Notes: generated from the letters alone by a model not told the origin. A DNA stretch of 64,000 bases from Patescibacteria group bacterium (GCA_041671225.1 JBAZBY010000001.1:827740-891739); one strand, 5' to 3'. Counted from the stretch's first letter, positions 24,055 to 58,858 are shown. Numbers and translations are program-made.

Positions 24055-24855
24055 TAAGGTAATAACCGCGACGGTTATGAGCTCTTGCAACTCCCATGGT
24101 GGAGCAACCTGTGCCCTTTTAAAAAGCTCACTGCCTAGTTCTTCAACGCTCAGAACCTCACCAATCACGAGACCGGGGGGTATGGCCTCCTCAATGCCAG
24201 CCGTAAGCACCACTGTGCGCTCCCCTACCTCTGTGTCGCGCGGGATAAGCTCCATTGTCAGTGAAAGTCCCAATTGTCCGCTCACAATGCCTTGTGGTGC
24301 ACCATTACCGGCAAATGTCGCTGAAAGTTGCGTGTCATTATCAAAAAGAAGTTGAACACGAGCAGAATGTGAAAAAACCTCTCGCACAACACCAACGAGA
24401 AATCCTTCACGAAAAACAACCGCCTGTCCAATTGCAACACCATCAGCTTCGCCTTTGTCTAAAAGAAGGGATGATGCGTCTTGATAACTAAAAACATTTG
24501 TTGTTCTCGCGAGCAAGAACGGCAAGTCGCGTTCGGCAAGAAAATCTGCCGCTGGCGAAGCTGCCTGCAATTCTGTGAGCCGCGTGGTGAGTCTTGCATT
24601 ATCAATGATAAGATCCTCCACCTGGAGGCGGAGTTCCTTATTCTCTGCTGTAAGTGCTTCCACCGATTTTGCGTCTCCACTCCCTATCTGTTTCTGTCCA
24701 AGCCGAGAAAACGCGCCGGTTACGGGTTGTGTGACCCGTAGCAAAAGATCCTCGAAGGGTTTGAGCACGCCAACACCATGCAGTAAGACAAGAAGAAAAA
24801 CAACAATAAAGACCCAAAGGACGAGTTTTGTCTGTGGACGGTCAGCTTTTTTCAT
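24052..24855 (-). CDS. mreC: Rod shape-determining protein MreC
   Basis: N-terminal TM, coiled coil, beta-rich C-terminal domain. Follows mreB. Confidence 0.8.
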   Translation of the reverse strand: MKKADRPQTKLVLWVFIVVFLLVLLHGVGVLKPFEDLLLRVTQPVTGAFSRLGQKQIGSGDAKSVEALTAENKELRLQVEDLIIDNARLTTRLTELQAASPAADFLAERDLPFLLARTTNVFSYQDASSLLLDKGEADGVAIGQAVVFREGFLVGVVREVFSHSARVQLLFDNDTQLSATFAGNGAPQGIVSGQLGLSLTMELIPRDTEVGERTVVLTAGIEEAIPPGLVIGEVLSVEELGSELFKRAQVAPPWELQELITVAVITL

Positions 24856-24858
24856 GGA

Positions 24859-25914
24859 CTACGAAAGAAGTGATTCACTATCACTGGTCAGTACCAGCAC
24901 ATTGCGGAGCGAGTCCAACTCATCCAGAACAATTCCTGTACCGCGTACGACCGCTGTTAATGGATCGTCAACGACGTGTACAGGAATTTGTGTTGCCTCG
25001 TGAATAAGCGTATCAAGCCCACGGAGCAGCGCACCACCGCCAGAAAGCACAATGCCTCGTTCAAAAATATCTGCAACGAGTTCCGGGGGAGTATCCTCAA
25101 TGGTCGTTTTGACGTTTTCCACAATGGTCTTCAGTGAACGTGCGAATGACTCACGCACTTGCTCGCTGGTAATGAGAACCTCCTTTGGTAATCCGGTAAT
25201 GAGATCACGGCCTCGCATTTTTGTTTCACGCAATTCAACGCTTGGGTGGGCTGAGCCAATTTGAATCTTGATATCTTCCGCAGTGCGCTCACCAAGAAGA
25301 AGATTAAAATGATCACGCGCATACTGAATAATATTGTGATTCATCTCATCTCCTGCAGCGTGGAGTGTCCGCCATGCGACAATACCTCCAAGAGAGATAA
25401 CAGCAATATCTGTGGTGCCACCACCGATATCAATGAGCATATTGCCCGTTGCTTCTTGAATAGGAAGTCGCGCTCCAATTGCAGATGCCATTGGCTGTTC
25501 AATAAGATACACTTCTCGCGCGCCAGCATGAAGCGCCGCGTCTTCCACGGCCTTACGCTCCACTTCTGTGATACCGAGTGGGATACCAATCACAATACGC
25601 GGGCGCGGCATAAATGCCGCACTCTCGCGATGCACTTTGCTAATAAAATATTTAAGCATGCGCTCCGTTACCTCGAAATCAGAAATGACGCCATGAACAA
25701 GTGGCCGCGTTGCTGTGATATGCGCAGGAGTTTTCCCCACCATACGACGGGCGTCCTCCCCAACAGCAAGAATCTGGTCTGTACGGGTATTTACCGCAAC
25801 CACAGATGGTTCATTCATCACCACACCCTTGTCTTTCACATACACAAGCGTGTTCGCGGTGCCGAGATCCACCCCCATATCCCGGGAAAATTTTCCCAAT
25901 ATTCTATTGATCAT
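24859..25914 (-). CDS. mreB: Rod shape-determining protein MreB (copy 1, in the mreBCD-PBP2 operon)
   Basis: GVDLGTANTLVYVKDKGVVMNEPSVVAV and actin-fold motifs. Confidence 0.95.
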   Translation of the reverse strand: MINRILGKFSRDMGVDLGTANTLVYVKDKGVVMNEPSVVAVNTRTDQILAVGEDARRMVGKTPAHITATRPLVHGVISDFEVTERMLKYFISKVHRESAAFMPRPRIVIGIPLGITEVERKAVEDAALHAGAREVYLIEQPMASAIGARLPIQEATGNMLIDIGGGTTDIAVISLGGIVAWRTLHAAGDEMNHNIIQYARDHFNLLLGERTAEDIKIQIGSAHPSVELRETKMRGRDLITGLPKEVLITSEQVRESFARSLKTIVENVKTTIEDTPPELVADIFERGIVLSGGGALLRGLDTLIHEATQIPVHVVDDPLTAVVRGTGIVLDELDSLRNVLVLTSDSESLLS

Positions 25915-29281: not shown

Positions 29282-30337
29282 TTATTTCTTTATTAATTGC
29301 GTACCAAAGAAAAGACTATTTGGATCTGATGGGTGTAGTCTGAATGAGGTGATCTCACGCGAGGTTGGTATGGAGCGCACTGCCCATTCTTCGCCACCAT
29401 CAAACGAGCGGTGAAGCGTTCTCCCTGCGACAAAATACATCGTAAGAGGATCCGATGGATGCAAGCCGATATGTTTGATAGCGACCGTTTTCGATTTAAC
29501 AAGTGTATTCTGTAATACCCAGGAATCACCGGAATCAATACTCTTCAATATGCCATATGATGTTGCAAGATAAAGAAGATCTGGTGCCGATTCCCGGAAA
29601 ACAAGGTCATATAATTTCACTCGGCCTTGCACAATTTCTTCCCAGTTCTCATTGAGGTCCGCAAAACGCTCGCCGCCATCGCGTGTTCGCAGAAGATGGT
29701 GATCGGTTGTCAGAAGGTAAAAAGTATCACTATTGGTGGGATGATAAAAAATCTTTGCAATACCACGACTGATCCACTGCTGCACATCCCATGTCCCGGC
29801 AAAATCACTGCTCACAAGTACACCGCCCGTGCTGGTGGTTGCAATCACACGACCTGGCGTCTGCGGGTCAAGCGCAAGGTCGGTAATTGATTGGTCGCTA
29901 CGTGTTTCAATATAGACCTCGCTCCAATTTTCTCCGGCATCCACGCTTTTCAAAATGCTGCGATTATTTGTCGCATAGAGTGTCGATGGAGTTACGCGAT
30001 CAATAATCAAGCGGCCATAAGAACCTCGGGCAAGACCGGTCTTTGTCCACTGTTTACCCCCATCCAACGTTTTATAAATGCCAGCACCAAGCGATGGTGC
30101 ATAGATTATGTCAGGATCGACGGGATGAAAAACAATATCAAAAATATTGGTAAAATTGAGCGTGACAACATCCTCGCCTTGCTGTGCAACAAAATTACGT
30201 TGCTTAAATGTTTCACCGCGATCTGTGCTTGCAAAGATGCCGCCATCTGGCGGCGTATCTGCAATAAAACCACATGCAGCACCGGTAAACAGCAATGCAG
30301 AAAAAAACGCAACGAGCAAAAGTGTCTTACGTCTCAT
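29282..30337 (-). CDS. BNR/Asp-box repeat beta-propeller lipoprotein
   Basis: Signal peptide with a Cys lipobox (LLFTGAAC). Seven S-x-D-x-G-x-x-W/F Asp-box repeats (STDRGETF, TLDGGKQW, SVDAGENW, TRDGGERF, SIDSGDSW, SFDGGEEW...). Confidence 0.65.
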   Translation of the reverse strand: MRRKTLLLVAFFSALLFTGAACGFIADTPPDGGIFASTDRGETFKQRNFVAQQGEDVVTLNFTNIFDIVFHPVDPDIIYAPSLGAGIYKTLDGGKQWTKTGLARGSYGRLIIDRVTPSTLYATNNRSILKSVDAGENWSEVYIETRSDQSITDLALDPQTPGRVIATTSTGGVLVSSDFAGTWDVQQWISRGIAKIFYHPTNSDTFYLLTTDHHLLRTRDGGERFADLNENWEEIVQGRVKLYDLVFRESAPDLLYLATSYGILKSIDSGDSWVLQNTLVKSKTVAIKHIGLHPSDPLTMYFVAGRTLHRSFDGGEEWAVRSIPTSREITSFRLHPSDPNSLFFGTQLIKK

Positions 30338-31363: not shown

Positions 31364-32479
31364 CTATTCTTGAAGGAGAACGTTTCGAGTTTTTAAAGCA
31401 GCACTTTTCCATGAAAAGCCCGCCAATTGTTTGTGTCCCTTCTCCCGCAGCGAGACATTCTGTGCGTCATTTGTTGCAAGCGCGTACAGGCCTGCGGCAA
31501 TATCTTGGACGTTTTTTGGATCTGCAGAAAGTGCTGCCTCACCGGCAATTTCTGGAAGTGAGCCGGCACGTGAGATCAAAACTGGCGTTCCCGCAGCAAA
31601 TGCCTCAAGAACCGGAAAACCGAAACCTTCATAATTCGATACAAATGCAAATCCTTTTGCCATGTGCATAAGCACACGCAGATAACCGGCATCAGTATAC
31701 CCGAGCCGGTGAACTGTGCCATGCAAGTTATTCTCGCGAATAATCTTTTCTACCACATCTGCACCAAAACCATCGCCGCCAGCAAGAACAAGATCAACAT
31801 CATGCACGCCTTGACGCTGCACCTCCGCAAAGGCGCGGACAAGATTTGGCACATTCTTTTTCTGCTCAATGCGCCCGATAAAAAGCAAAAATGGTTTATG
31901 GAGCCCGTATTTTTTCCTGACGAAAGATTTTTCTTCTTCTGTTGGTTTCTCAGAATACCGCTCAAGATGAAAACCATGGTGAATGACGACAAAACGCTTC
32001 ACATCGACAGAAAAATGATGCTGAATGCGTTGTAATGTGAAGTGGGAAGGAACAATGACTCTTTCTGCGGTTCGCAGGGCATGCCGCAATGCAAACGCAT
32101 GATAGCGGCGTTCCCATGTTGGGTACAGTTCCGGAAAATCTTCAAATCCAATATCATGAATTGTTGTTACTGAGCGTGTTGTCTGAATCAGAGGAAGTGC
32201 GTGCGCTGGCGCAAAAAAGACATCAGGCTTCTTTGTCAGCATCTCAACCGAAAGTCGCCCCTGATGCCAAAAACGCTTCAGCGGCCAATGAAGCTCCCGT
32301 GTGGTGAAGCCAGAACCGAGATCTTTGAGGTCATCACGAAGTGGATTCTCAATATAGAGAATATACTCTTCGCTTTGTCGGATCTCAGCAAGCGCATGCA
32401 ATAAATCAAAAGCATACCACTCAGTGCCCGTACGGTTTGCGGCGTTCGCCTGACTCGCATCAACCCCAACACGTATCAT
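31364..32479 (-). CDS. GT4-family glycosyltransferase
   Basis: E-x7-E region with GFPVLEAFAAGTPV. Start placed at MIRVGVDAS (32479), overlapping the stop of the upstream mreB paralog. Confidence 0.8.
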   Translation of the reverse strand: MIRVGVDASQANAANRTGTEWYAFDLLHALAEIRQSEEYILYIENPLRDDLKDLGSGFTTRELHWPLKRFWHQGRLSVEMLTKKPDVFFAPAHALPLIQTTRSVTTIHDIGFEDFPELYPTWERRYHAFALRHALRTAERVIVPSHFTLQRIQHHFSVDVKRFVVIHHGFHLERYSEKPTEEEKSFVRKKYGLHKPFLLFIGRIEQKKNVPNLVRAFAEVQRQGVHDVDLVLAGGDGFGADVVEKIIRENNLHGTVHRLGYTDAGYLRVLMHMAKGFAFVSNYEGFGFPVLEAFAAGTPVLISRAGSLPEIAGEAALSADPKNVQDIAAGLYALATNDAQNVSLREKGHKQLAGFSWKSAALKTRNVLLQE

Positions 32480-33486
32480 GAGGTTGCGAGAATGCTTCGT
32501 TTGTATGAGTCCAAATTCTCCAACGCAATACCCGTACCACGAACAACACACAAATGTGCATCTTCTGCAACATACGCCGGTACCCCTGTTGCCTGTGCAA
32601 GGAGCCGATCAATATTCCGTAGCAATGAAGACCCGCCAGAAAGCATCATGCCTTTGTCCATAACATCCGCAGAAAGTTCCGGGGGCGTGATTTGCAACAC
32701 AGATTTCACTGCCTGAATAATCCCAGAAAGCTCATCCTGCAACGCCTCGGTAATATCATCGCTTGTCACAACAGTTGTGCGCGGGAGCCCGGAAATCATG
32801 TCACGGCCACGAACCTCAGATGAAAGCTGCTCCTCCATGAGCATAGCAGAGCCAATATCAATTTTTATCTGCTCTGCGCTTCGCTCACCAATAGCTATAC
32901 CGTATTTTTTGCGAATAAATTCCTGAATTGCAGTATCAAACTTATTTCCCCCGATGCGAATAGAGGTATTCGCAACGATCCCTCCAAGAGAAATAACCGC
33001 AATTTCTGCAGTACCCCCACCAATGTCAACAATCATGTGCCCAGATGCCGACCCAATAGGAATATCCGCTCCAATCGCGGCAGCAATAGGCTCTTTAATG
33101 ATATACGCGGCTTTTGCGCCGGCGGCAATGGTTGCATCAATAACGGCGCGACGTTCTGTTGAGGTAATACCAGCCGGGACGGCGATCATCACTTCGGGAC
33201 GCATGAGGCGTATCGCACCAACGGCCTTATTGATAAAATACCGGATCATCGCTTCGGTGGATTTATAATCTGCAATCACACCATCCCTCAATGGTCGGGA
33301 TGCAACAATGGTATCTGGGGTGCGTCCGATCATCTCTTTTGCCTCATCGCCAACGGCAAGAATTTTTTTGTCGATTTTAGACATCGCAACAACAGAAGGC
33401 TCGTTGATCACGATCCCCTTACCTGGAAGATGCACCAGTGTGTAGGTTGTCCCCAGGTCTATACCAATGCGTTTGTTGAACATCAT
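32476..33486 (-). CDS. MreB/Mbl-like actin homologue (copy 2, embedded in the glycosyltransferase cluster)
   Basis: IGIDLGTTYTLVHLPGKGIVINEPSVVAM; full-length actin fold. Roughly 50-55% identical to copy 1 by eye. Confidence 0.9.
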   Translation of the reverse strand: MMFNKRIGIDLGTTYTLVHLPGKGIVINEPSVVAMSKIDKKILAVGDEAKEMIGRTPDTIVASRPLRDGVIADYKSTEAMIRYFINKAVGAIRLMRPEVMIAVPAGITSTERRAVIDATIAAGAKAAYIIKEPIAAAIGADIPIGSASGHMIVDIGGGTAEIAVISLGGIVANTSIRIGGNKFDTAIQEFIRKKYGIAIGERSAEQIKIDIGSAMLMEEQLSSEVRGRDMISGLPRTTVVTSDDITEALQDELSGIIQAVKSVLQITPPELSADVMDKGMMLSGGSSLLRNIDRLLAQATGVPAYVAEDAHLCVVRGTGIALENLDSYKRSILATS

Positions 33487-35441
33487 TACTGTGTACGGAA
33501 GAACTGATCTTCATCGAATGCGGTGGAAAAAGTAACAGTGTCATTTTCCTTGGATTCCACTGCATTGCTCGGCGTGGCGTGCGCAATGGTTTTACCAAGC
33601 TTTATGGTACTCGTCAAGGTGGTTCGTTCCAAACCAGCTTGTTTCTGAACAGTAAGCTCATAGCCATCTTTACGCATTCGCCTGACAAGCTCATCCGGCA
33701 ATGCATAACGCAGAGTGGTCGTAATGGACTCACCAGGCTCTATACTGACAAATCCTGAAAATACCGTATACCCATGCGCGGCTCCAGTAGTTGCTTCCGT
33801 GGGCTGACCGTTGTGCAACTTGTCATTTGTTGCAAAACCACTTGATTCTAGAAGCTCACTACCAAATGGAACATAGGTACGAACATACGTTCGATAGCGC
33901 GAAATCAGTGAGGTGAATTCGCCGGTATGATGATATGTCATCGACACCGTTGCCTCGCCCGAATCAAGATCAACGTTATGTACAATGTTACGCTCCATCA
34001 CACTATCGGTTTTAAGGCTGGCAAGATTTGCATCAACAATATGCAAATAATCATTCGCCGTTGCCCGGAGAGATCCATCCCACGTGCGATCATGAAGCAC
34101 CGCCTGCACTTTTGGATCCTTTACATACAACAAGATATGACGCTCCTCGATGTTCTTGATAAAAACGCTCCAAAGACCTGGCCACTCTGCTTGTGGAAGA
34201 TTCTCCAATTTTGTAACAAGCTCCTGCCCAAGACTGCCAATAATACCCTTTCGCTCATTCCCCACTTCTCCACGCGCCACAAATCCCTTATCCACCTGAA
34301 ATCGCAACTCTTCAAGCGCATTTTCCTCAGTGAACTCAACACCATCCACGGTAATTGGACCAGTAATACCAAGGAGGTCTTTGAGGAGTACTGGAGTGAT
34401 TGCAATAACGCCATCAATATCGGGGGCATTCAAATCCTCCTCAGCATAGAGCGCCAACGCATCCTGGGCAGTCGTTGGAAAATCCGGAGACCAGTTTACA
34501 TCGCGGAAAAACCACTTATCAGCCGCGAGATACGCCTGGAGTGGCTCTGGTGCCTCACGGGTCACGCGAGGTTGTGCCGCTTCATCTAGATTGTAAACAT
34601 TGTCAGTACTAAATTCATTAACCTGACCGCTTGCAATATCAAGAATGCCATAGGTACCAATGAATCCGCCGGTTGGGCGAAGCTCCTGATTGTTCTGTAA
34701 AAGGAAAAGGTATGTTATTCCATCTGGATACCCAACGATATGTGGAAGAATACGCGTGAACGGCAATGCATTGTCGATGACATCTTCAATAAGCGGAAAT
34801 TGTTCGGCCAACTCAGCTGAAATATCTGCCAAAGGCCCAATGAGCCCAGAATCTGGAATATCATTAAAGGCCTTTTGCGCAATACTAAGGTGGTATTCAG
34901 CAGTTGCAAGGCTTTCCTCTCCGGCATCTAATGCGCCCAAAATCTGACGCCGTTCTTCATTCGTCAGTGAATCTGGCGTCAACTCCGTATTCTCCGTCAG
35001 TGTTGTGAGCGCTGCATCTGCAATATTGAGAATCTCTCGTATTGCGATACCTGTCTCCTGTGCGAGAAGAAGAAGATTATCTGCCGCAGAAACCTGCGTT
35101 CCCAAAAAAGGAACGAAGGTGAATAATCGGAAGGGGCCCATATCGTCGTGAGCCTCCGTGAATAGCGCGACGGCAGCATCGGTAGAATCTTTTGCGGCAA
35201 CAAAATCAAAAGCCAATGCTTCAATTTGTGCATCTTTAAAATACCGCTCACCTTCTCGTGCGCGTTGCTCAATATTCTTGGCGCGCACATATCCAGCAAA
35301 GCCAAGCGCGCAAAGAAGGATAACTGCAGCTCCAATAACACCCAGCAATTGCCAGCGAATGCGTCGTTGCGTTTTCTTTTTACCTGGCTTCAAGAAGTCG
35401 ACGTGCTTGTTAGCACTTTTCTTTCGTATGCTCCCCCTCAT
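33486..35441 (-). CDS. DUF4012-family membrane-anchored protein
   Basis: N-terminal TM. ELRPTGGFIGTYG matches the DUF4012 signature. This family co-occurs with polysaccharide biosynthesis loci. Confidence 0.65.
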   Translation of the reverse strand: MRGSIRKKSANKHVDFLKPGKKKTQRRIRWQLLGVIGAAVILLCALGFAGYVRAKNIEQRAREGERYFKDAQIEALAFDFVAAKDSTDAAVALFTEAHDDMGPFRLFTFVPFLGTQVSAADNLLLLAQETGIAIREILNIADAALTTLTENTELTPDSLTNEERRQILGALDAGEESLATAEYHLSIAQKAFNDIPDSGLIGPLADISAELAEQFPLIEDVIDNALPFTRILPHIVGYPDGITYLFLLQNNQELRPTGGFIGTYGILDIASGQVNEFSTDNVYNLDEAAQPRVTREAPEPLQAYLAADKWFFRDVNWSPDFPTTAQDALALYAEEDLNAPDIDGVIAITPVLLKDLLGITGPITVDGVEFTEENALEELRFQVDKGFVARGEVGNERKGIIGSLGQELVTKLENLPQAEWPGLWSVFIKNIEERHILLYVKDPKVQAVLHDRTWDGSLRATANDYLHIVDANLASLKTDSVMERNIVHNVDLDSGEATVSMTYHHTGEFTSLISRYRTYVRTYVPFGSELLESSGFATNDKLHNGQPTEATTGAAHGYTVFSGFVSIEPGESITTTLRYALPDELVRRMRKDGYELTVQKQAGLERTTLTSTIKLGKTIAHATPSNAVESKENDTVTFSTAFDEDQFFRTQ

Positions 35442-36259
35442 GTTGCGTCCTGCGCTGCTTCTTTTTTTTTCCGCTGATCAAAATACTTCATGAAATATTT
35501 GATGCCACTCAAAATATGAATACGCGTCGCTTTGGAAAAAATACCAGAAAGTCCGGGAGATTCCGCCGAGAGTCGTTGATGATAATGCACCATCTTTGCA
35601 TCCGCAATGTAATGAACCTCCCACTGTTGCTCCCAAAATCTACGACACCAATCAACATCCTCAAAATAGAGAAAAAACCGTTCATCCATTAATCCCACCT
35701 GATCGATGGCGGATTTGCGAATCAGCATCGATGCGCCAAGTACCCAATCAACGGTTCTGTTATTATTGTGATCCCAATCAAGCATAAGATATTCCTGAAG
35801 TGAGTTACGTGCCCATGGCAATCGCCCAAGTGGTGTACGCCGATACACAGGAACCATTCGTGATGGGAATTTGTAACAAGAAAGCTGCGTTGTACCGTCT
35901 GGGTTCACAAGACGCGGAGCAACTAAGGCGGCCTTTGGATTTTCCTGCAAAAAGTTGTAGAGTTTTTCAACTGCGCCATCAAGTACAGCAATGTCAGGGT
36001 TCACGATCAGTATAAAATCACCCTGCGATTTTTTGATACCAGCATTGATGGCTTTTGCTAAACCCACATTACTCGGCGAGCTGATATATGTGACGTTAGG
36101 AAAATGCTCCGCGATCATGTCTTTGCTTCCATCACCTGAATTATTATCGATGACAATAATCTCATAAGAGAGCTTGATATGAACCAAATCAAAACCACGA
36201 ATACACTGCTTGAGCAATCCTGGCGTCCTATAGTTTACGATAATAACGGAAATATCCAC
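35438..36259 (-). CDS. GT2-family glycosyltransferase
   Basis: ISVIIVNYRT...VIDNNSGDGS; DxD region. Confidence 0.8.
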   Translation of the reverse strand: MDISVIIVNYRTPGLLKQCIRGFDLVHIKLSYEIIVIDNNSGDGSKDMIAEHFPNVTYISSPSNVGLAKAINAGIKKSQGDFILIVNPDIAVLDGAVEKLYNFLQENPKAALVAPRLVNPDGTTQLSCYKFPSRMVPVYRRTPLGRLPWARNSLQEYLMLDWDHNNNRTVDWVLGASMLIRKSAIDQVGLMDERFFLYFEDVDWCRRFWEQQWEVHYIADAKMVHYHQRLSAESPGLSGIFSKATRIHILSGIKYFMKYFDQRKKKEAAQDAT

Positions 36260-36262
36260 GTG

Positions 36263-37276
36263 TTATGAAAAGTAATGATTGAGAGAGGCGGGATCAACTT
36301 TTTGATGCCGCTGAATCATGCGGCGTTTCTGAAGATAACGCGGTAAAAGTCTTAAAAACCGGCTATACCCTGCAATGACCTTTGGCTCACGGAATAGACG
36401 GTATAGCATTTTTGCTGCTTCTCGTCCAATAATGCGCGGACTGTTCTTCCAAAAAGTTCGTGCATCGAGATTCTTTACCAGGACCGCCGGAGCATTTGCC
36501 GCTGCAAGTTTGCGAAGATACAGAGGCCGCCCGTGCCGAGCAGAAATACTTTCACGAAGTGATGTGCCACCTTTAACATTGCGATAGTGCCAGGCGAGTG
36601 CATCCGGAAAAAATACGGACTTCCAACCTGCGCGCTGCAATCGCCACGCAAGATCACTGTCATCGGCATACGCAAAGAAATCTTCATCAAAATACTCACG
36701 CCCGTGCTTCACGCTTTCCAATGCCTCGCGGCGATACAATGCACAGGCGCCGCTCGGTCCAAAAATATCCTGCAGGGAGTCATACTGACCTTCATCCTTT
36801 TCTCCCTCTCCGCGGTTTACAAAATTTCTTGCGAGAGTACCCCGAAGACCCGTGGTATCCAGTATATCAGAGCGAATTGGCTCTCTCAAGTCATCGCCAG
36901 ATTCCCAAGAAAAACGCAAAAGCTTCCCTTGCACGCTCCCGAGTTCAGGATTTTTTTCTAACATGGTAATCGCCTGCTCAAGAAAATTTGGCGATAAGAG
37001 CACATCCGGATTAAGCACAAGAATGTATGGTGTCTGCGCCAGTGCAATAGTAAAATTTTGTGCTCGTGAAAATCCAAGATTATTTGAAAGTCGCATTATT
37101 TTGAAATGTGGGTACTCCTCACTCAGGAGCGTAAGCGTTTCATCTCGTGAGGCATTATCAACGATCCGAATGGCGATGTCCTTCCGTGTCTGAATCTCCA
37201 GTGCTTTGATGCACGGCAAAATAAACACACCGCTATTCCATGTAACAATGCTAATTGTGACGCTCGGCGATGTCAT
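36263..37276 (-). CDS. GT2-family glycosyltransferase
   Basis: ISIVTWNSG...VDNASRDET; DxD region. Confidence 0.8.
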   Translation of the reverse strand: MTSPSVTISIVTWNSGVFILPCIKALEIQTRKDIAIRIVDNASRDETLTLLSEEYPHFKIMRLSNNLGFSRAQNFTIALAQTPYILVLNPDVLLSPNFLEQAITMLEKNPELGSVQGKLLRFSWESGDDLREPIRSDILDTTGLRGTLARNFVNRGEGEKDEGQYDSLQDIFGPSGACALYRREALESVKHGREYFDEDFFAYADDSDLAWRLQRAGWKSVFFPDALAWHYRNVKGGTSLRESISARHGRPLYLRKLAAANAPAVLVKNLDARTFWKNSPRIIGREAAKMLYRLFREPKVIAGYSRFLRLLPRYLQKRRMIQRHQKVDPASLNHYFS

Positions 37277-38831
37277 GGTGTTGTGTGATAAAAAGTGCGC
37301 CGGAAAATAGAATCAGGAGTGCGCCGATGCCGAGTGGATGGTTAAGATACGGTGTGGTGAAGTGCGTCACCGCAAGAAAAAGAATTCCTGCAAGTAGAGT
37401 TATTGTTTCGGCATTATGCTGCATTCGGAATGCACGCAGCGCTTCACGAAAACCCGCAACAAGAAAGAAAAGAAAGATACAAAGACCAACGATGCCCGTT
37501 TTGACCATAAGATCCAAATATGACCACTCAAAAAGATACACCTTGATGGTCTCTACTATTTCTGTACCAGGAACAGGCGCGAGAAAAGAAACCGTTGTCC
37601 CAAATCCCCAACCAAAAAATGGGCGCTCTTGAATGCGCTCCCAAATCGGTTCCAGAAGAGATAACCTCGTTGATGCAGCGAGTTCTTGCGTTGGCCGTAA
37701 AAGGCTCATAAACCGATCAACAAAAATTTGCCCAACATTTGGAAACAAAAATACCAATACAAGCACACCAACCAGCCCCGTTATGCCCACTGCGCTTGCA
37801 GCGCGTACCCGAGCACGGCCAGACAAAAGAAAAACTGCAAAAAGAATGGCAAGTGCTATTCCAAGCCAAAGACTACGGGAAAAGCTTACCGCCATTGTTA
37901 TGCCATAGAGTAACAAGAGTACAAGGAGGTAACGTTTTCCTTTTGCAAACATCTTTTCTTGTTGCGCAACACGAACAAAAAGCCAAAGAAAGGCGAGAAA
38001 CAAAAAAACATGGCTTGAAAGAAAAACCCGAAAAAATGCACTCCCTACAAAAGAAACTTCTGCATTACCCGTGTCTCTCAGCCAACGATAGACCGCCGTC
38101 ATGCCTCCTCCCTCATTTTCATCCAAATATATTTTATCGGCGCTGCGCGTCGTGGTCTGAGCAAGGATCCCCTCTTCATTCGTCTCTCCTCGCAATGCAA
38201 TACGCTGCTCTTCAGTAATGGAAGTTGCTGCGGTAAAATCTCCTGTATCAAAAAAAAGTGTAAAGCTAAGAGAGATGAAAATGGTGAGAATTGCAATCGC
38301 AGTGGTAGCGCCAAGAAGTACCGGGAAAAAATTTTTCCACCACACTCTATCAAAAAGGACAAGTGTTAATGGCAGGAGGGCAAGATAAAAAATATAACCA
38401 TTTGCATCAAAATATACCAACGATGATGGGTCGCGAAAATAACCATAGAGCGCACCTCCAATAAAAAGAAGTATAAGCAACAGCCACGGCATACCATAGG
38501 GAGTACTCTGAAGCACAAAAATCCTTTTTTCCCGTCGTGCATGAACAAACCATGTAAACATAACAATGACAAACAATGCAAGTCGAATACCAATGACTTC
38601 GTCGCCGACGGGCACACTAAAAAGTGCACCTTTATTGCCAATCACCAGTTCAAAAAAGAAAATCACGAGTGCCCAAGAATAGGAACGAAAAGCGAGGAAT
38701 GTAAACCCAACGAGAAAGACAACGACAAGAAAAACGTGAAGCATTGGATATGCGAATACAATGAAAGAAAGAAGCCAAAGCACAAGCGTGCCGGCGAATC
38801 CTCCAATGGCAAGATATTTACTTTGCAGCAT
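37251..38831 (-). CDS. O-antigen ligase/polymerase-like (Wzy_C) polytopic membrane protein
   Basis: At least 10 TM helices and a large periplasmic loop with the SFSRSLWLG motif typical of O-antigen ligase/polymerase domains. Start uncertain (38831 vs 38903). Confidence 0.55.
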   Translation of the reverse strand: MLQSKYLAIGGFAGTLVLWLLSFIVFAYPMLHVFLVVVFLVGFTFLAFRSYSWALVIFFFELVIGNKGALFSVPVGDEVIGIRLALFVIVMFTWFVHARREKRIFVLQSTPYGMPWLLLILLFIGGALYGYFRDPSSLVYFDANGYIFYLALLPLTLVLFDRVWWKNFFPVLLGATTAIAILTIFISLSFTLFFDTGDFTAATSITEEQRIALRGETNEEGILAQTTTRSADKIYLDENEGGGMTAVYRWLRDTGNAEVSFVGSAFFRVFLSSHVFLFLAFLWLFVRVAQQEKMFAKGKRYLLVLLLLYGITMAVSFSRSLWLGIALAILFAVFLLSGRARVRAASAVGITGLVGVLVLVFLFPNVGQIFVDRFMSLLRPTQELAASTRLSLLEPIWERIQERPFFGWGFGTTVSFLAPVPGTEIVETIKVYLFEWSYLDLMVKTGIVGLCIFLFFLVAGFREALRAFRMQHNAETITLLAGILFLAVTHFTTPYLNHPLGIGALLILFSGALFITQHHDIAERHN

Positions 38832-39714
38832 ATGTTGGGCGAACAAAACGCCTAAAAAGCTTCTGGGGAAGCAGCGTAACAAGGAGTGCAATACCTGTCC
38901 CAAGAATTGCAGACGGCAAAAGGAGAAGATGTGCTGGGCTGTGAAATTTCTTGAAGTATCGCAGCATTGAGGTTTGATAAAGCAAGTGCCGGCGGAGTGG
39001 CCATAGTTGAATAGTACTCAGTCCTCCAAGGTGCATAGCACAAAAATTTGGATTATACACAATGCGCAACTTTCGCTCGCTCGCTCGTTTACAAAAATCT
39101 ACTTCCTCAAACCACAAGAAATACGTTCGGTCAAAACCACCAAGCTGGTCATATATTTTTCTTCTGAAAGCAAAAAGGGCGCCTTCTACTTGTTCAACGT
39201 CAGCGGCATCATCATAGGAAAAATCAATTGCACGATACTTTTGCAGAGGCTCTGCATCAAAGAAAAACGTACTGAGTTTTGAAAGAATAATTGCCTGGTC
39301 GCTAAGGCCAGGAAAACGATGAACGGATCGCTGAATCGTGCCGTCTTCGTTAAGTACCTTACCGCCAAGTACGCCGATCGAACCATCCGCATCAAGTATC
39401 TCCGAAGCATGGCGCAGTGTGTCTTGATACACAACGACATCCGGATTAATGAGAATGATATTACGTCCTTTTGCACGTGCAACTCCTTGAGTAACCGCTG
39501 TTGCAAACCCAAGATTTTTTCTATTTAACACGTACATGCTATTGGGGAGGCTCGCAAGACTTGCTTGCGTCCCATCATGTGACGCATTATCAATAACAAT
39601 CACCTCAAACGAAATACCCTCTGACTTGGAAAGTGCATGCAAACAACGCTCAAGTGCGGTACGCACATTCCAGGAAACGACAATGGCAGATATATCTGGA
39701 TTTGTACCACTCAT
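38818..39714 (-). CDS. GT2-family glycosyltransferase
   Basis: ISAIVVSWNV...VIDNASHDGT. Confidence 0.8.
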   Translation of the reverse strand: MSGTNPDISAIVVSWNVRTALERCLHALSKSEGISFEVIVIDNASHDGTQASLASLPNSMYVLNRKNLGFATAVTQGVARAKGRNIILINPDVVVYQDTLRHASEILDADGSIGVLGGKVLNEDGTIQRSVHRFPGLSDQAIILSKLSTFFFDAEPLQKYRAIDFSYDDAADVEQVEGALFAFRRKIYDQLGGFDRTYFLWFEEVDFCKRASERKLRIVYNPNFCAMHLGGLSTIQLWPLRRHLLYQTSMLRYFKKFHSPAHLLLLPSAILGTGIALLVTLLPQKLFRRFVRPTYAAK

Positions 39715-39715
39715 A

Positions 39716-40435
39716 TCAAAGAGGCAAACGAAGATAAAGTTTGAAAAGAAAACGCTTGATCGCTGAGCTGCCTGGCAGTTGAAAGCGCTTTCGAAAATCC
39801 TCCTCTAGTATACCAGAGGTTGCAGCACTGATGGAGTGCTCGCGAATTGGAGTGGAATAAAGACTTCCCTTCACCCGAATCCCCTGCTTTCCAGCACGTG
39901 CAAGTCGCAACCAAATCTCCCAATCCTGAAACCTAGGTAGTGATTCATCAAAACCAGTAAAATCTCGTGCGCGGAGTAATGCCATCGTTGGTATGTAATT
40001 CTGGATCTCCAAAAGTCGAAGGGAAAAGCGGGGCACATGAAAAAATCGATCCCCAAAAATAAACGGGCCATATGCAAAACTCATGTATGGATGCATGTCC
40101 AATGCATTGCTGAGTCGCTCAAGAGTATCCGGTTCCAAGATGGTGTCGGCATCACAAAAAAACAGGTACCCATCATGTATGCCCGACGCGCCAACATTAC
40201 GCGCTATTGATGCGCCACGTGAATCCGCACTCTCTGGTTTTGGATTCCTGATGATCGTCAGAGGAAGGCGATCCTTCCATACTTCTACGAGAGCTACTGT
40301 TTTATCTGTCGAATAATCATCAACAAGAATAATACGCTCTGCTGTTCTCGTTTGCAGAGCAATACTTTTAAGGCAACCATCGATACTCTCGGCGGCATTC
40401 TTTGCCGGAATGATGAGTGTTATTCGTTCTCCCAT
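39716..40435 (-). CDS. GT2-family glycosyltransferase
   Basis: ITLIIPAKNAAESI...LVDDYSTDKT. Confidence 0.8.
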   Translation of the reverse strand: MGERITLIIPAKNAAESIDGCLKSIALQTRTAERIILVDDYSTDKTVALVEVWKDRLPLTIIRNPKPESADSRGASIARNVGASGIHDGYLFFCDADTILEPDTLERLSNALDMHPYMSFAYGPFIFGDRFFHVPRFSLRLLEIQNYIPTMALLRARDFTGFDESLPRFQDWEIWLRLARAGKQGIRVKGSLYSTPIREHSISAATSGILEEDFRKRFQLPGSSAIKRFLFKLYLRLPL

Positions 40436-41547
40436 AGCAACATAAGTTCACGAAATTGATGCCCCCATGTAAAATGAGGCACGACGCTATCACGCGCAGC
40501 ACGACGGAACTGCTCCCGCGGCTCATCTGTCTGCAGGAGTGCGCGCAACCGATCTGCAATGACTTCAACGTTCGTACCATCACCAACAAGATAGCCTGTT
40601 TTATTGTTGCGGACAATTTCTCGCACGCCGCCAAGTTCTGAGGCAATAACAGGGGTGCCGCATGCAAGCGCTTCCACATACACAATGCCAAAACTTTCTG
40701 TATCCGATTTCCCGATCATTCGTGTTGGCATCACAAAGCAATCCGCAGCGGAATACCAATGTCGCTTTTCAGCTACATCGGTCACGTTCCCCAAAAAGCG
40801 AACATGCTGGGCGACGCCCATCTGTTCCGCTAATTGTTCAAGATGCTGGTGTTCTGGACCTTCCCCAAGAAGTATCAGTTCTGCATTTGGAATGTCGCGA
40901 TGTACTGCAGCAAAAGCGCGAATGGTTGTGTCAAAACCTTTGCGAGGTATCAGTCGCCCAATGGAAAGCACAATATGTTTATTGAGCAAATCATTCTCCG
41001 TATAAAAGCGCTTTGGGCGCTCAGGATAATATTCCTCCGAATCAATACCCGGAGAAATGATGTGTATATGCTCGCGTTCAACTCCGGCGCGCTGCGCCGC
41101 TCCCGCAAGGAAGCTGCCATTTGCAATACAATATTCAGCGCGACGTAGGATCTTTTTACGCAGAAAAGACTTGAAGGGATATCTGCTCCACTGAAAAAAA
41201 TCAACCCCGTGCAAAAATGTCGACCAAGGAATATGCAACAGCATTGCAACCAAGGCAATGCCTGGTGCATAAGGAGCAAAATGCCCAAGAACGATATGTT
41301 CTACTCCTTCGTTACGAAGTATTTTTTTTAACTTCCAAACAAACGGTAACCATGCTGGAAACATCGGGCGAGCCGAAAAAAACGGAATCGTGTAAACCTG
41401 TACATTTTTTGGAAGTTGTCCGCTTGGTTTTTTTGGAGTAATAAGAACAAGCTCGCCCGGATACGCCTGCACGAACTTCTGAAGATACAATTCAATACCT
41501 CCAACTTGCGGAGGAAAAAAAGCCGTGATGAGCGCGATTTTTTTCAT
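40420..41547 (-). CDS. GT4-family glycosyltransferase
   Basis: MKKIALITAFFPPQVGGIE and a C-terminal GT4 nucleotide-sugar-binding region. ATG at 41547 overlaps the flippase stop (ATGA). Confidence 0.8.
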   Translation of the reverse strand: MKKIALITAFFPPQVGGIELYLQKFVQAYPGELVLITPKKPSGQLPKNVQVYTIPFFSARPMFPAWLPFVWKLKKILRNEGVEHIVLGHFAPYAPGIALVAMLLHIPWSTFLHGVDFFQWSRYPFKSFLRKKILRRAEYCIANGSFLAGAAQRAGVEREHIHIISPGIDSEEYYPERPKRFYTENDLLNKHIVLSIGRLIPRKGFDTTIRAFAAVHRDIPNAELILLGEGPEHQHLEQLAEQMGVAQHVRFLGNVTDVAEKRHWYSAADCFVMPTRMIGKSDTESFGIVYVEALACGTPVIASELGGVREIVRNNKTGYLVGDGTNVEVIADRLRALLQTDEPREQFRRAARDSVVPHFTWGHQFRELMLLWENE

Positions 41548-43013
41548 AAAGACTTCCGCATAAAAAGTCTTCGAAAAAGTGCAACAGACTCGCGTGCTTC
41601 CTGCCCACCAAACAACAACCACAGCATCGCATAACTCACGATGCCCACCAAAACAACAAATGGGAAGCTCAAAAATGACTTCACAAGAAGTATGATAAGC
41701 GCCATGCCTGCACCGGCGAATGCTGTGCGTAGAAAGCCAGAAAGCAGTCTCATGCGCTGCAAGGGCATAACCTTATGCGCTGAATAAGCATTGAGGAGAA
41801 ACAACGCTATAGCGGTTGCAAGCAGTGCAATGCTGGTGCCAATATGCTGATACAAAGGAACAAGAATGAGATTTAAAGTAACATTGATAACAACAATGAT
41901 GCCGAGATTGAATGTATTTCTTTTTTGTGCATTCGCCGCATTGAGGTATGAAGAAAAAATGACATTCACGAACATAAAGAACAATGCAAAAGCGATGATT
42001 TGCAGCGCAAAAATTGATTCATTGTACGCGTCAGAGAGTATGGGAATGATCCTATCCGCCAACACAACAATTCCAGCTGTAAGTGGAAATGCGATACTTG
42101 CGAGAAAGAACATGACGCGCGCAAAGAGACGCCGAAATTGTCCAGGATCAGAAACAAAAAATGTACTAAGGGCTGGGTAGACGCTGTTATTAAACGCAAT
42201 GGGAATGAACTGAATTGCAAGAAGTATTTTGTTTGCCGCGGAGTACCACCCGACATGCACATCGGTGGCAAAAAGAGAGAGAATCACGACATCAATAAAA
42301 GCATAAATACGCGTGAATATGCCGGCAATAAGAAACGGCCAGAGCAATTGAATGAGAAACGTGAGTGTCTTCGTTTGATGAGCAAGTGAAAAAGTAATTT
42401 TATGCTTTTTCCATAATGCGATAAGTGCATAAAGAAAATTTACTCCAGCACCAAACAATAATGAAAGAGCGGGTATGTAAACACTCTGCGTAATTTGCAT
42501 TGCAATAACACCAAAGGCAACAGCAAAAAATTGAAATAACGTGGAACCAATTGCTTCATGTTTCAAATTCTGAAAACCGCGAAACACTCCATAGAGTGAC
42601 AGTGTCAGTGATTCAAGGATCGTAATACCACCAGCAAAAAAAATGAGTTGACGCGTAAGTGCATTATAGTTACCTGAGAGTACGTAGACAAAAATGACCA
42701 GCGCAAGATAGGTAATGATTGAGAAAAAAATCTTTATCCAGAGAATATTCGAAAGTAATTCCTGTGCCCGTTCCTTTGCGCGGGATACCTCTCGAATAAG
42801 AATCGGTGAGAAACCAAGGTCAATAAAAATGCCAAACAACGTCGCCAGTGAGATTGCGGTCACGAGTTTCCCTGTATCCCCTGGTCCAAGTACGCGCGCG
42901 TAGTAAATAAAAAAACCAAAAGAGAGCGCCTTCTGTATGATAAAGGCTACCGTGAGATACCCCGTGTTCCTCGCGATCCGAACGCCCCCCTGGTCAGCCG
43001 CGTCGGTAGGCAT
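41544..43013 (-). CDS. Polysaccharide flippase (Wzx/MOP-superfamily)
   Basis: About 14 TM helices, 489 aa. Composition matches polysaccharide-biosynthesis PF01943-type proteins. Confidence 0.7.
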   Translation of the reverse strand: MPTDAADQGGVRIARNTGYLTVAFIIQKALSFGFFIYYARVLGPGDTGKLVTAISLATLFGIFIDLGFSPILIREVSRAKERAQELLSNILWIKIFFSIITYLALVIFVYVLSGNYNALTRQLIFFAGGITILESLTLSLYGVFRGFQNLKHEAIGSTLFQFFAVAFGVIAMQITQSVYIPALSLLFGAGVNFLYALIALWKKHKITFSLAHQTKTLTFLIQLLWPFLIAGIFTRIYAFIDVVILSLFATDVHVGWYSAANKILLAIQFIPIAFNNSVYPALSTFFVSDPGQFRRLFARVMFFLASIAFPLTAGIVVLADRIIPILSDAYNESIFALQIIAFALFFMFVNVIFSSYLNAANAQKRNTFNLGIIVVINVTLNLILVPLYQHIGTSIALLATAIALFLLNAYSAHKVMPLQRMRLLSGFLRTAFAGAGMALIILLVKSFLSFPFVVLVGIVSYAMLWLLFGGQEARESVALFRRLFMRKSL

Positions 43014-51880: not shown

Positions 51881-51881
51881 G

Positions 51882-58668: not shown

Positions 58669-58693
58669 GTATTTTTCTTTTTGTATGAAAACG

Positions 58694-58783
58694 CCCGGTT
58701 GTCCGGGGATAGAGAGGTGAGGGTTGGAAATCAGTATCGCTGCCCGTTGTAGTGTCAGGAAGCCATATTGATTCCCAACCCTC
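58694..58783 (-). promoter_or_regulatory. Structured leader/terminator region between secA and the L,D-transpeptidase gene
   Basis: Imperfect 15-bp inverted repeat (58719-58733 and 58769-58783, one mismatch) around a 35-nt loop. Adjacent CCCCGGacaaCCGGG hairpin plus a short U-run just upstream of the start codon. Confidence 0.35.
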
Positions 58784-58858
58784 GAAAGACTCTTTTGCTT
58801 TTTATTTTTGTTTGAAAAGAGCTTACAGCAGTAAGGATAGCAGAAAAATAGCCTCTTG

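Follow-up and report, generated by a model that had tools for sequence, protein, structure and literature searches.

A conserved DUF4012-MreB2-GT4 gene unit in Patescibacteria: a candidate envelope glycopolymer module with its own MreB paralogue

Introduction

The LytR-Cps2A-Psr (LCP) transferases move a glycopolymer from undecaprenyl-pyrophosphate onto either peptidoglycan or a protein of the cell surface. In Bacillus subtilis, LCP enzymes were discovered in a search for interaction partners of MreB (review PMC7831098), and the coordination of non-peptidoglycan wall polymers by MreB has so far been known only from scattered Bacillus protein-interaction data. The wall teichoic acid system of that bacterium combines an MreB-family filament, cytoplasmic glycosyltransferases for the glycopolymer and bitopic LCP-fold proteins (TagT, TagU and TagV), which are linked at the protein level only, with scattered genes and general MreB paralogues. 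Firmicutes have several MreB isoforms (MreB, Mbl and MreBH) per monoderm-type cell, only one of which is in the mreBCD operon, and we know of none that is fixed beside a GT4 or LCP-like gene.

A second point of comparison is DUF4012 (PF13196), a family noted as enriched in the candidate phyla radiation (CPR) and in Gram-positive bacteria. Bifidobacterium longum has a DUF4012 gene in its conserved eps1 operon, flanked by the genes for the priming transferase and Wzz, and the gene table of that cluster lists no LCP (PMC5412050). In strain 105-A the family is found in a Wzx/Wzy-type polysaccharide cluster, beside core assembly genes; that locus has no MreB, and "auxiliary envelope protein" is the only annotation of its DUF4012 protein. 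To our knowledge bifidobacteria lack MreB, and if so DUF4012 needs no MreB in general.

The Patescibacteria locus described here resembles both systems. As judged from its genes and a structural model, it has counterparts of the three Bacillus components, and as in Firmicutes one MreB paralogue lies in an mreBCD-type set and another outside it. It differs from Bacillus in that a separate MreB clade is encoded beside a GT4 and an LCP-like protein, the latter belonging to DUF4012 rather than to the Bacillus LCP family PF03816, with no HMM connecting the two. Like the bifidobacterial locus, it places DUF4012 among Wzx/Wzy-pathway genes.

Results

Gene content of the cluster

The window, which is the whole 64,000-nucleotide stretch of DNA that was analysed, contains ten tightly packed minus-strand genes at 31364-43013. 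They continue without a break from rplM-rpsI, 3 nt upstream, into holB, 19 nt downstream. Their families were assigned with Pfam as follows.

41544-43013, minus: Wzx-type flippase (Polysacc_synt, PF01943, 9.2e-36; weaker MurJ/MatE matches), starting 3 nt past rpsI
40420-41547, minus: GT4 glycosyltransferase, GT4b (PF00534, 8.3e-43, and PF13439)
39716-40435, minus: GT2 glycosyltransferase (PF00535, 6.6e-21)
38818-39714, minus: GT2 glycosyltransferase (PF00535, 3.6e-19)
37251-38831, minus: polytopic membrane protein with a Wzy_C domain, O-antigen ligase/polymerase family (PF04932, 9.7e-12)
36263-37276, minus: GT2 glycosyltransferase (PF00535, 5.1e-22)
35438-36259, minus: GT2 glycosyltransferase (PF00535, 1e-24; 300-376 bits in related loci)
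33486-35441, minus: DUF4012 protein, 651 aa, bitopic membrane protein (PF13196, 5.6e-34)
32476-33486, minus: MreB2, 336 aa, full-length MreB/Mbl actin homologue (PF06723, 1.1e-131)
31364-32479, minus: GT4 glycosyltransferase, GT4a, 371 aa (PF00534, 3.4e-29, and PF13439)

Every member of the preliminary description's inventory (two GT4s, four GT2s, an O-antigen-ligase-like protein, Wzx, DUF4012 and a full-length MreB) was therefore recovered, including a Wzx/Wzy-pathway flippase and a Wzy-family membrane protein (PF01943 and PF04932). The GT2 at 35438-36259 is the best conserved of the four and in relatives is often found just upstream of DUF4012.

The ten genes had been described as having 1-16 nt overlaps; the junctions in fact range between -16 and +3 nt, and the Wzy/GT2 junction is ambiguous (-26 or +22). 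Both overlaps of mreB2 are real in the sequence and are not annotation artefacts: its stop overlaps the GT4a start as ATGA, with the GT4a ATG at 32479, and its own ATG shares 1 nt with the TAA of DUF4012 (TAATGATG), where an ATG lying 3 nt further on could equally be the start. The longest GT4a ORF, from a GTG at 32551, was rejected as an over-call. GT4b probably starts at ATG 41547 with an ATGA overlap of the Wzx stop, and the Wzy_C gene has an alternative TTG start at 38903. No internal terminator or promoter signals above chance were found in the cluster. Gaps of 5 nt or less occur at eight of the nine cluster junctions versus 24/35 other same-strand junctions in the window, among them proS/mreB1, frr/rseP and serS/alr. 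Since unrelated genes overlap just as often in this genome, the overlaps have no evidential weight here, and the translational coupling that had been put forward as evidence was set aside.

The canonical mreB-mreC-mreD-PBP2 set that had been placed about 7 kb away was found to begin 6.6 kb from MreB2, although the ORF in the MreD position has no Pfam match.

24859-25914, minus: MreB1, 351 aa, head of the mreB-mreC-(mreD)-PBP2 set (PF06723, 3.3e-141)
24052-24855, minus: MreC (Pfam MreC, 6.8e-30)
23504-24055, minus: ORF in the MreD position, 197 aa (assigned by position)
21613-23622, minus: PBP2-type transpeptidase (Pfam PBP_dimer and Transpeptidase)

MreB1 was followed by MreC in every related locus in which MreB1 was seen, whereas MreB2 never had MreC directly after it in the loci examined and so lacks the arrangement of an mreBCD-type elongasome.

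MreB2 belongs to a distinct and highly constrained clade

MreB2 matches PF06723 over residues 5-329 of 336 (439 bits, cut-off 27), and scores above cut-off for the NCBIfam models NF010539 (456 bits, cut-off 293) and TIGR00904 (437 bits, cut-off 366). Its nearest solved structure is that of a Geobacillus MreB (56% identity), and the nucleotide-binding motifs of the actin fold (GIDLGT in the phosphate-1 loop, VDIGGGTAE in the phosphate-2 loop, and KEPIAAAIGA) are kept in register with the solved MreBs 7zpt, 1jce and 4cze. Clade-specific substitutions are few (T110, A127, I129, K131, I142 and G179). A hydrophobic Leu-Met pair aligns with the membrane-insertion loop position of Thermotoga MreB, which we take to be L93/F94; this is an indirect sign only, and membrane-bound antiparallel double filaments of MreB2 are putative.

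MreB1 and MreB2 are 47% identical, a distance comparable to that of each from the MreBs of other phyla (49-56%). Neighbor-joining trees were built with the Geobacillus and Thermotoga MreBs and with Caulobacter MreB as the root; in these, the MreB1 and MreB2 clades were each monophyletic in 100/100 bootstraps, and the two were jointly monophyletic in just 26/100. This identity and the two separate clades indicate that MreB2 is not a recent tandem duplicate of MreB1, as had been considered, but an old paralogue. It is also the more conserved of the two: in the same 49 genomes mean identity was 79% for MreB2 versus 67% for MreB1, MreB2 was more conserved in 99.7% of genome pairs, and near-invariant columns numbered 138 versus 66. 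MreB2 therefore represents an ancient MreB clade of Patescibacteria that stands apart from MreB1 and is under unusually strong constraint. That CPR MreBs fall into two clades, with some genomes having both, and that these may differ in role, was reported by Takahashi et al. 2020 (bioRxiv 10.1101/2020.05.13.095042), whose text addresses no gene context (the terms "operon", "glycosyl" and "gene cluster" are absent). What is new beyond that study is the gene context, with MreC/PBP2 as partners of one clade and GT4/DUF4012 as those of the other, and the finding that the second clade is the more conserved.

The conserved unit is smaller than the cluster

Gene neighbourhoods were surveyed in 80 species-representative Patescibacteria loci, with adjacency counted only where a locus had room. 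GT4a lay directly downstream of MreB2 in 57 of the 74 loci with room, and for 37 of these the spacing fell between -4 and +9 nt. DUF4012 lay directly upstream in 38/75 and was the commonest upstream neighbour of MreB2; otherwise it was usually a few genes away, including a few genes downstream in an architecture with GreA. The remainder of the cluster was far more variable: GT4a was present in 61 of the 80 loci, compared with 24 for Wzy and 15 for Wzx. Exceptions to the pairing include a few lineages in which GT4a is lost or has moved (e.g., L022, L053 and L058) and three loci (L010, L019 and L028) in which another GT4 gene directly follows MreB2, with GT4a coming next in L010 and L028.

The MreB2-GT4a pair was kept behind four differing upstream neighbours (DUF4012, GreA, GT2 and other), in a neighbourhood running from MacB/FtsX to an S8 peptidase, and with or without Wzx/Wzy genes. 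The genes after GT4a vary among relatives (holB/BNR, GT4s or an S8 peptidase), and in rearranged loci glycan genes follow the pair (GT4s, a Bac_transf priming enzyme, an epimerase and GT2), as in the L003 architecture, where one or more Bac_transf genes follow an MreB2-GT4 pair. A reciprocal check gave the same picture, as all four CPR homologues of GT4a examined, which are only 33-38% identical to it, directly follow an MreB2-type gene, which shares 70-77% identity with MreB2 as against 45-47% with MreB1, and three of the four have DUF4012 upstream of that gene.

MreB2 has thus stayed linked to glycan genes in dozens of species despite several rearrangements, and the MreB2-GT4a pair itself persists in at least four rearranged neighbourhoods. 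Because the Wzx/Wzy/GT2 remainder comes and goes, the conserved unit is the DUF4012-MreB2-GT4 triad, within which the MreB2-GT4 pair is kept most strictly; the original proposal that MreB2 is wired into a 12-kb glycan cluster holds for the triad but not for the cluster as a whole.

The DUF4012 core is predicted to have an LCP fold

DUF4012 had been described as having no known function, a statement that can now be sharpened by the predicted fold of its conserved core. The protein matches PF13196 over residues 243-380 (118 bits, cut-off 28), as do 64/64 aligned homologues, and its AlphaFold model is of high quality (pLDDT 88.6, pTM 0.84). Two of its regions are listed here.

35286-35354, minus: predicted transmembrane helix, residues ~30-52, WQLLGVIGAAVILLCALGFAGYV, within the long helix 25-76 of the model
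34062-34736, minus: conserved core, residues 236-460, predicted LCP fold, with LLQNNxELRPTGGFIG, the motif best conserved in DUF4012

The model places a basic cytoplasmic tail before the single transmembrane helix; outside the membrane follow a helical bundle, the LCP-like alpha/beta core and, at the C-terminus, a beta-sandwich. This predicted bitopic topology is that of LCP proteins, which likewise have a short tail on the cytoplasmic side, one helix and their catalytic domain beyond the membrane. Across homologues the tail has 11-83 residues, with a mean of 10.8 K+R versus 1.3 D+E; its sequence is not conserved and therefore contains no obvious MreB-binding motif. Structural matches to the model core were to LCP proteins only (Cps2A, LcpA, TagT, TagU, MsrR and BrpA), and the core has their alpha-beta-alpha arrangement. 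In the model, the part of DUF4012 that is conserved outside the membrane thus adopts the LCP transferase fold.

At the sequence level the two families are far apart. DUF4012 is 8-15% identical to LCP transferases such as Cps2A, LcpA and TagT, PF03816 was found in 0/64 homologues at E values up to 10, an HMMER search with the DUF4012 profile found no LCP chains in the PDB, and hhalign against a four-sequence LCP profile gave E values of 0.21 and 0.11 (probability <1%). The helical bundle and beta-sandwich are additions relative to LCP transferases. Ten residues are invariant in DUF4012 (N250, N251, E253, R255, D286, R313, D314, D320, R397 and K398), but the classical Asp/Arg catalytic set of LCP enzymes, which in Cps2A is D234 and D246 for Mg2+ and R267, R362 and R374 for pyrophosphate, could not be mapped, and the strand-1 position appears to be Asn-Asn rather than Asp. 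Resemblances seen by eye (LLQNNxELR/LLMGSDxR, IDGVIAVTP..LTGPITV/VDYFISINM..AVGGITV and ERKEIIG/RQREVIQG) are without statistical support.

Discussion

From gene order and predicted fold, we consider it on balance probable that the locus is a conserved Patescibacteria (CPR) envelope glycopolymer module in which MreB2 guides the assembly and attachment of a wall glycopolymer. The core of the module would be the bitopic DUF4012 protein, the dedicated MreB paralogue MreB2 and the cytoplasmic GT4. On the cytoplasmic side of the membrane, MreB2 filaments would recruit or position GT4a, which would act on a lipid-linked intermediate, and would position the DUF4012 protein via its short basic tail or membrane helix. 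The neighbouring GT2 and GT4 enzymes may build the polymer itself, Wzx may flip it and the Wzy_C protein may handle it; with GT4a and DUF4012 positioned by MreB2, attachment of the polymer to the wall would then take place at particular sites. Such a module would run beside the MreB1-MreC-PBP2 peptidoglycan machine and would in effect be the MreB/teichoic-acid enzyme/LCP association of B. subtilis written as an operon. We infer the spatial organisation of glycan synthesis, which the MreB-LCP link in B. subtilis (PMC7831098) makes more plausible. The place of DUF4012 in the bifidobacterial eps1 operon also favours the proposal, as does a gene for a TagA/WecG-type linkage-unit enzyme elsewhere in the window, 24 kb away. 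Counting against it are the wide conservation of gene order in these genomes, the unconserved DUF4012 tail, the distance of DUF4012 from LCP at the sequence level, the lack of a priming transferase and a chain-length regulator among the cluster genes, the lineages with a hairpin before GT4a or with GT4a lost or moved, and the presence of DUF4012 in bifidobacteria if these do lack MreB.

A bolder form of this proposal can be advanced tentatively. Patescibacteria may have two parallel actin-guided wall machines, MreB1-MreC-PBP2 for peptidoglycan and a hitherto unrecognised MreB2-GT4-DUF4012 machine that makes a secondary wall glycopolymer and attaches it covalently, and DUF4012 may be a new branch of the LCP superfamily, unrecognisable by sequence, that Actinobacteria, Firmicutes, Chloroflexi and Cyanobacteria also use without MreB. 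If so, the very strong conservation of MreB2 would imply that, of the two cytoskeletal systems of these epibiotic cells, the one serving the glycopolymer is under tighter constraint than the one serving peptidoglycan.

Somewhat more doubtful is the possibility that DUF4012 shares the LCP fold only and is no transferase, serving instead as a non-catalytic scaffold or as a chain-length or export co-factor that, like a polysaccharide co-polymerase, binds the lipid-linked glycan. The absence of sequence-level similarity to LCP, the catalytic Asp/Arg pattern that cannot be aligned and the long helical bundle ahead of the core all favour it. So does the lack of a Wzz-type chain-length regulator, which, like a priming phosphoglycosyl transferase, was not found among the ten cluster genes with Pfam.

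We think it unlikely that MreB2 and GT4a cooperate away from the Wzx/Wzy glycan, with GT4a making a membrane glycolipid or modifying peptidoglycan or a lipid-linked precursor, MreB2 being the main organiser of wall growth, and the glycan cluster and DUF4012 being loose passengers. The MreB2-GT4a pairing is indeed stricter than the link to GT2, Wzx or Wzy, the constraint on MreB2 exceeds that on MreB1, and below threshold GT4a matches NCBIfam glycolipid synthases (MGlcDAG synthase, GlcNAc-PG synthase and LTA-anchor enzymes) as well as polysaccharide GT4s. However, GT4a reached the cut-off of no NCBIfam family, glycolipid families included, other glycan genes follow the pair in rearranged loci, and DUF4012, which elsewhere is found in polysaccharide loci (PMC5412050), is the commonest upstream neighbour of MreB2 and recurs downstream in the GreA architecture.

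Least probable is synteny without shared function, in which MreB2 would simply be another cytoskeletal protein of general use (in shape, division or pili), with a position inherited in small, dense, slowly rearranging genomes: these streamlined genomes do conserve ~20 kb of gene order spanning plainly unrelated genes (holB, frr, rseP and proS), the whole block rpsI...holB-BNR-frr-rseP-proS-mreB1 accompanies the cluster in many of them, stop/start overlaps are equally frequent between unrelated genes and a terminator-like hairpin parts mreB2 from GT4a in some lineages, but the pair stays intact amid changed surroundings in which the rest of the block does not travel with it, GT4a homologues of low identity still directly follow MreB2, and MreB1 has an equally strict but different partner in MreC.

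The proposed glycopolymer module would mean that an MreB-glycan association is fixed in the genomes of a very large, mostly uncultured radiation, with an MreB clade dedicated to it. The recurrence of the unit across ultra-small Patescibacteria suggests a cytoskeleton dedicated to building a sugar coat, and its three adjacent genes offer a clean genetic handle on how an actin homologue may organise glycopolymer synthesis and attachment. The predicted LCP fold of the DUF4012 core offers a concrete, testable hypothesis on the biochemistry of many polysaccharide loci, bifidobacterial ones among them, and suggests wall-anchored glycopolymers on CPR envelopes, which would be relevant to host attachment.

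Gene content and junctions of the cluster

Pfam searches of the ten consecutive minus-strand genes returned exactly the domain list drawn up in the preliminary description. The features needed here are as follows.

Principal features of the cluster and of the second mreB set
31364-43013, minus strand: cluster encoding a Polysacc_synt/Wzx flippase, two GT4, four GT2, a Wzy_C membrane protein, a DUF4012 protein and a full-length MreB
31364-32479, minus strand: GT4a, downstream of MreB2
32476-33486, minus strand: MreB2, 336 aa, the MreB of the cluster
33486-35441, minus strand: DUF4012 protein, 651 aa
40420-41547, minus strand: GT4b
24859-25914, minus strand: MreB1, 6.6 kb from MreB2 and heading the set mreB-mreC-(unassigned ORF)-PBP2

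The same description had proposed translational coupling within the cluster, which stands as a fact of sequence. The DUF4012 stop overlaps the mreB2 start by one base (TAATGATG in minus-strand reading) and one ATGA serves as the stop of mreB2 and the start of GT4a, so that the overlaps at the DUF4012/MreB2/GT4a junctions are present in the sequence itself and are not annotation artefacts. The alternative GT4a start of the longest ORF, GTG at 32551, was rejected as an over-call. As a pointer to function, however, the coupling is uninformative in this genome because tight junctions are not specific to the cluster: gaps of ≤5 nt occur at 8 of 9 cluster junctions versus 24 of the 35 other same-strand junctions in the window. 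The cluster is separated by 3 nt from rplM-rpsI upstream and by 19 nt from holB downstream, with no break, and belongs to a run of 45 consecutive co-directional genes (14349-63975, minus strand) in which 32 of 44 junctions overlap or have a gap of ≤5 nt. Many of these are ATGA, even for unrelated pairs such as mnmA/alaS-like and the tight non-cluster junctions proS/mreB1, frr/rseP and serS/alr. Overlap as a sign of functional coupling was therefore rejected on the grounds of its genome-wide occurrence. Internal promoter and terminator signals of the cluster were at chance level, and a search of the window for RNA genes returned no Rfam family and no tRNA.

Two old MreB paralogues

MreB1 and MreB2 are 47% identical. 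We placed the sequences of 49 MreB1 and 83 MreB2 proteins of related genomes in one tree with the Geobacillus, Thermotoga and Caulobacter MreBs from PDB alignments; MreB1 and MreB2 were each monophyletic in 100 of 100 bootstrap replicates and grouped together in 26 of 100. They are about as distant from one another as either is from MreBs of other phyla (49-56%), and this deep mutual distance and the separate clades indicate that the duplication, or acquisition, is old. A recent tandem duplication, which the preliminary description had considered, is ruled out by the 47% identity and by the two separate, fully supported clades. The cluster copy is also the more constrained: across the same 49 genomes mean pairwise identity is 0.79 for MreB2 versus 0.67 for MreB1, MreB2 is the better conserved of the two in 99.7% of genome pairs, and near-invariant columns number 138 versus 66. 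MreB2 retains its nucleotide-binding motifs and passes curated MreB cut-offs. A 2020 preprint described two clades of MreBs in the Patescibacteria radiation (CPR), with presumably different roles; gene context is absent from that work (bioRxiv 10.1101/2020.05.13.095042).

Predicted fold of the DUF4012 protein

The searchable literature mentions DUF4012 three times, noting its enrichment in CPR and in Gram-positive bacteria and its presence in the EPS locus of Bifidobacterium longum, and assigns it no function. A confident AlphaFold model of the DUF4012 protein built on 64 homologues (pLDDT 88.6, pTM 0.84) runs from a disordered basic tail through a long helix with a membrane segment to an extracytoplasmic helical bundle, after which come an alpha/beta domain and a beta-sandwich. 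The alpha/beta domain coincides both with the Pfam region and with the most conserved block (LLQNNxELRPTGGFIG). As independent support, Foldseek placed structures of the LytR-Cps2A-Psr (LCP, PF03816) transferase family in the top 12 positions with probabilities of 0.92-1.00, and the core is thus predicted to have an LCP fold. A link at the level of sequence was sought and rejected: a permissive Pfam scan of the 64 homologues gave no PF03816 match at E up to 10, HMMER with a DUF4012 profile against the PDB found no LCP chains, and hhalign, full-length and domain-only, was negative (E 0.1-0.2) against a thin LCP profile of four sequences from plasmid pNZ4000 and PDB alignments. By eye, collinear motifs of DUF4012 and LCPs may resemble one another. 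Run against the window and ~1.6 Mb of related loci, an HMM of the same four sequences found no canonical LCP gene, a weak negative given how thin that model is.

DUF4012 has its own set of invariant charged residues. In B. longum, a DUF4012 gene lies in the conserved eps1 operon with a priming enzyme and Wzz, and the gene table of the EPS cluster lists no LCP (PMC5412050). That context is consistent with an LCP-like role. It is somewhat unlikely that DUF4012 kept the LCP fold but lost catalysis and serves as a scaffold or chain-length factor; the negative sequence tests for LCP would allow this, whereas the invariant polar residues and the coexistence with Wzz in B. longum argue against it. 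Bifidobacteria are not known to have MreB, which would mean that DUF4012 is not MreB-dependent in general.

The 'LCP family protein' of the lactococcal plasmid pNZ4000 (L093:13400-14302) can be aligned to solved LCPs. It may be catalytically altered, because it reads TGKNNSK...AYAT...FPVFA where those LCPs have the conserved motifs GxD...RAD...PRD.

Conservation of MreB2, GT4a and DUF4012 in related genomes

A species-level scan (one genome per species) yielded 566 relatives, of which the best 80 (74-82% identical) were analysed; their names include Kerfeld-, Komeili-, Falkow-, Kuenen- and Buchananbacteria and Parcubacteria, and their loci were annotated using the window's own proteins. Among these best 80 of 566, GT4a lies directly downstream of MreB2 in 57 of the 74 loci that extend far enough, 37 of these having a spacing of -4 to +9 nt, and the gene directly upstream of MreB2, scored in 75 loci, is DUF4012 in 38, GreA in 15 and GT2 in five. 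MreB1 has MreC next downstream at every locus where it was seen. The linkage of MreB2 to the cluster was therefore borne out for GT4a and DUF4012, but the Wzx/Wzy/GT2 genes were found in part of the loci only. Their patchiness, set beside the persistent adjacency, identifies the conserved unit as the DUF4012-MreB2-GT4a triad, with the MreB2-GT4a pair its strictest part.

Architectures of the MreB2 loci
Window type: …GT2-DUF4012-MreB2-GT4a-holB…
Komeilibacteria type: …MreB1-MreC-PBP2-GreA-MreB2-GT4a-GT4-GT4-GT4-DUF4012
Third type: MreB2-GT4a downstream of MreB1-MreC, plus a convergent GT4
Free-standing type: DUF4012-MreB2-GT4a, with MacB/FtsX genes on one side and an S8 peptidase on the other

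A reciprocal comparison covered the neighbourhoods of six GT4a homologues of only 33-39% identity. All four CPR homologues with intact context have an MreB2-type gene directly upstream (70-77% identical to MreB2, 45-47% to MreB1), preceded by DUF4012 in three. The sole non-CPR case of the six, an Anaerolineae relative (38% identity), has no MreB nearby, which rules out an extension of the link to it. A metagenome scan with GT4a as single-protein query returned three weak loci only (27-29% identity).

Several loci depart from direct adjacency. In an Uhrbacteria locus from the reciprocal comparison (L091:240-5771, GCA_016206165.1), MreB2 and GT4a are ~6 kb apart because of inserted DNA, the only instance seen of mobile-looking DNA dividing the pair; the insert encodes, among others, a NUDIX protein, a periplasmic binding protein and a toxin-antitoxin pair of HepT/MNT type. 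An extra GT4 (PF00534/PF13439) directly follows MreB2 in three loci (L010:10810-11907, L019:11020-12117, L028:10000-11103) and lies ~1.5 kb downstream of it in a fourth (L020:12579-13844); it stands between MreB2 and GT4a in L010, L020 and L028, GT4a being the next gene in L010 and L028, and in L019 the contig ends before any GT4a. In one architecture (L061:11009-11052, L063, L066, L084), a spacer of 35-46 nt between MreB2 and GT4a has a GC-rich hairpin with a T-run after it and resembles an intrinsic terminator or attenuator; if it acts as one, MreB2 expression could far exceed that of GT4a. Many species-representative metagenome-assembled genomes titled 'uncultured Gammaproteobacteria bacterium' (L007, L010, L014, L015, L017 and others) unmistakably have the Patescibacteria gene order and an MreB2 of 75-82% identity, and their label looks wrong.

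That MreB2 and GT4a act together outside the Wzx/Wzy glycan, for instance on a glycolipid or in modifying a precursor, is unlikely, although it would be allowed by the pair being kept more strictly than its Wzx/Wzy link and by sub-threshold matches of GT4a to glycolipid synthases; no NCBIfam model above its cut-off names the GT4a family. Gene order inherited with no shared function, as a large conserved block and genome-wide overlaps might suggest, is quite improbable, since the MreB2-GT4a pair outlives several rearrangements that disperse other genes.

A proposed role in glycopolymer attachment

The substrates of LCP enzymes are glycopolymers, among them wall teichoic acids and capsules, which are moved from undecaprenyl-pyrophosphate onto peptidoglycan or surface proteins; the enzymes came to light when partners of MreB were sought in Bacillus subtilis (reviewed in PMC7831098). 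The simplest reading of the triad would be that Patescibacteria have a separate MreB paralogue committed to glycopolymer attachment. Filaments of MreB2 would position GT4a, in the cytoplasm, and the DUF4012 protein, which is bitopic and LCP-like; polymer synthesis and export would fall to the GT2/GT4, Wzx and Wzy_C proteins encoded nearby, and peptidoglycan to MreB1-MreC-PBP2. Our results comprise gene content, conserved linkage, paralogue history and a predicted fold, from which each physical interaction, the enzymatic activity and the nature of the polymer are inferred. Already known are the two CPR MreB clades, the association of MreB, LCP and teichoic acid in Bacillus, and the fact that some polysaccharide loci contain DUF4012. 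In the searchable literature we found no description of the MreB-GT4-DUF4012 linkage as a fixed genomic triad, of the clean partner split between the MreB paralogues, of the stronger constraint on the glycan-linked copy, or of an LCP fold in DUF4012. These features are of solid interest for bacterial cell-envelope biology.

Other wall-related genes and additional observations

The window also encodes the peptidoglycan enzymes murB, a Mur ligase, ddl, alr and an L,D-transpeptidase, and one further gene of relevance to wall polymers.

7580-8362, plus strand: WecG/TagA/CpsF-family GT26 (PF03808, 2.9e-45)

In wall teichoic acids the ManNAc-GlcNAc linkage unit is the product of this type of enzyme, and the gene hints that the organism may build wall-linked polymers on a teichoic-acid-type linker. 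Its flanking ORFs (6156-7559, minus strand; 8359-8847, plus strand) have no Pfam match.

The counterparts of GT4b and its adjacent GT2 are fused into a 602-aa protein in a Kerfeldbacteria locus (L001:2068-3876), and this fusion indicates that the two probably act in succession. In the free-standing architecture an S8 subtilase with FG-GAP repeats comes right after the triad (L092:7312-9537, L094:7312-9549, L070:8818-11085), and in the window an L,D-transpeptidase (YkuD) is fused to FG-GAP repeats (57241-58875), making FG-GAP modules a recurring part of wall-active enzymes in these genomes. A secreted BNR/sortilin-Vps10-type beta-propeller (29282-30337, minus strand) is conserved across loci, its gene sitting between holB and frr in most of them. 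Finally, the region 50093-53321 (minus strand) contains two large ORFs, one of 634 aa with the P-loop motif GKTGMGKST and a long tail that is basic and rich in Q and R, the other of 479 aa with N-terminal membrane segments; a 376-aa ORF is their neighbour.
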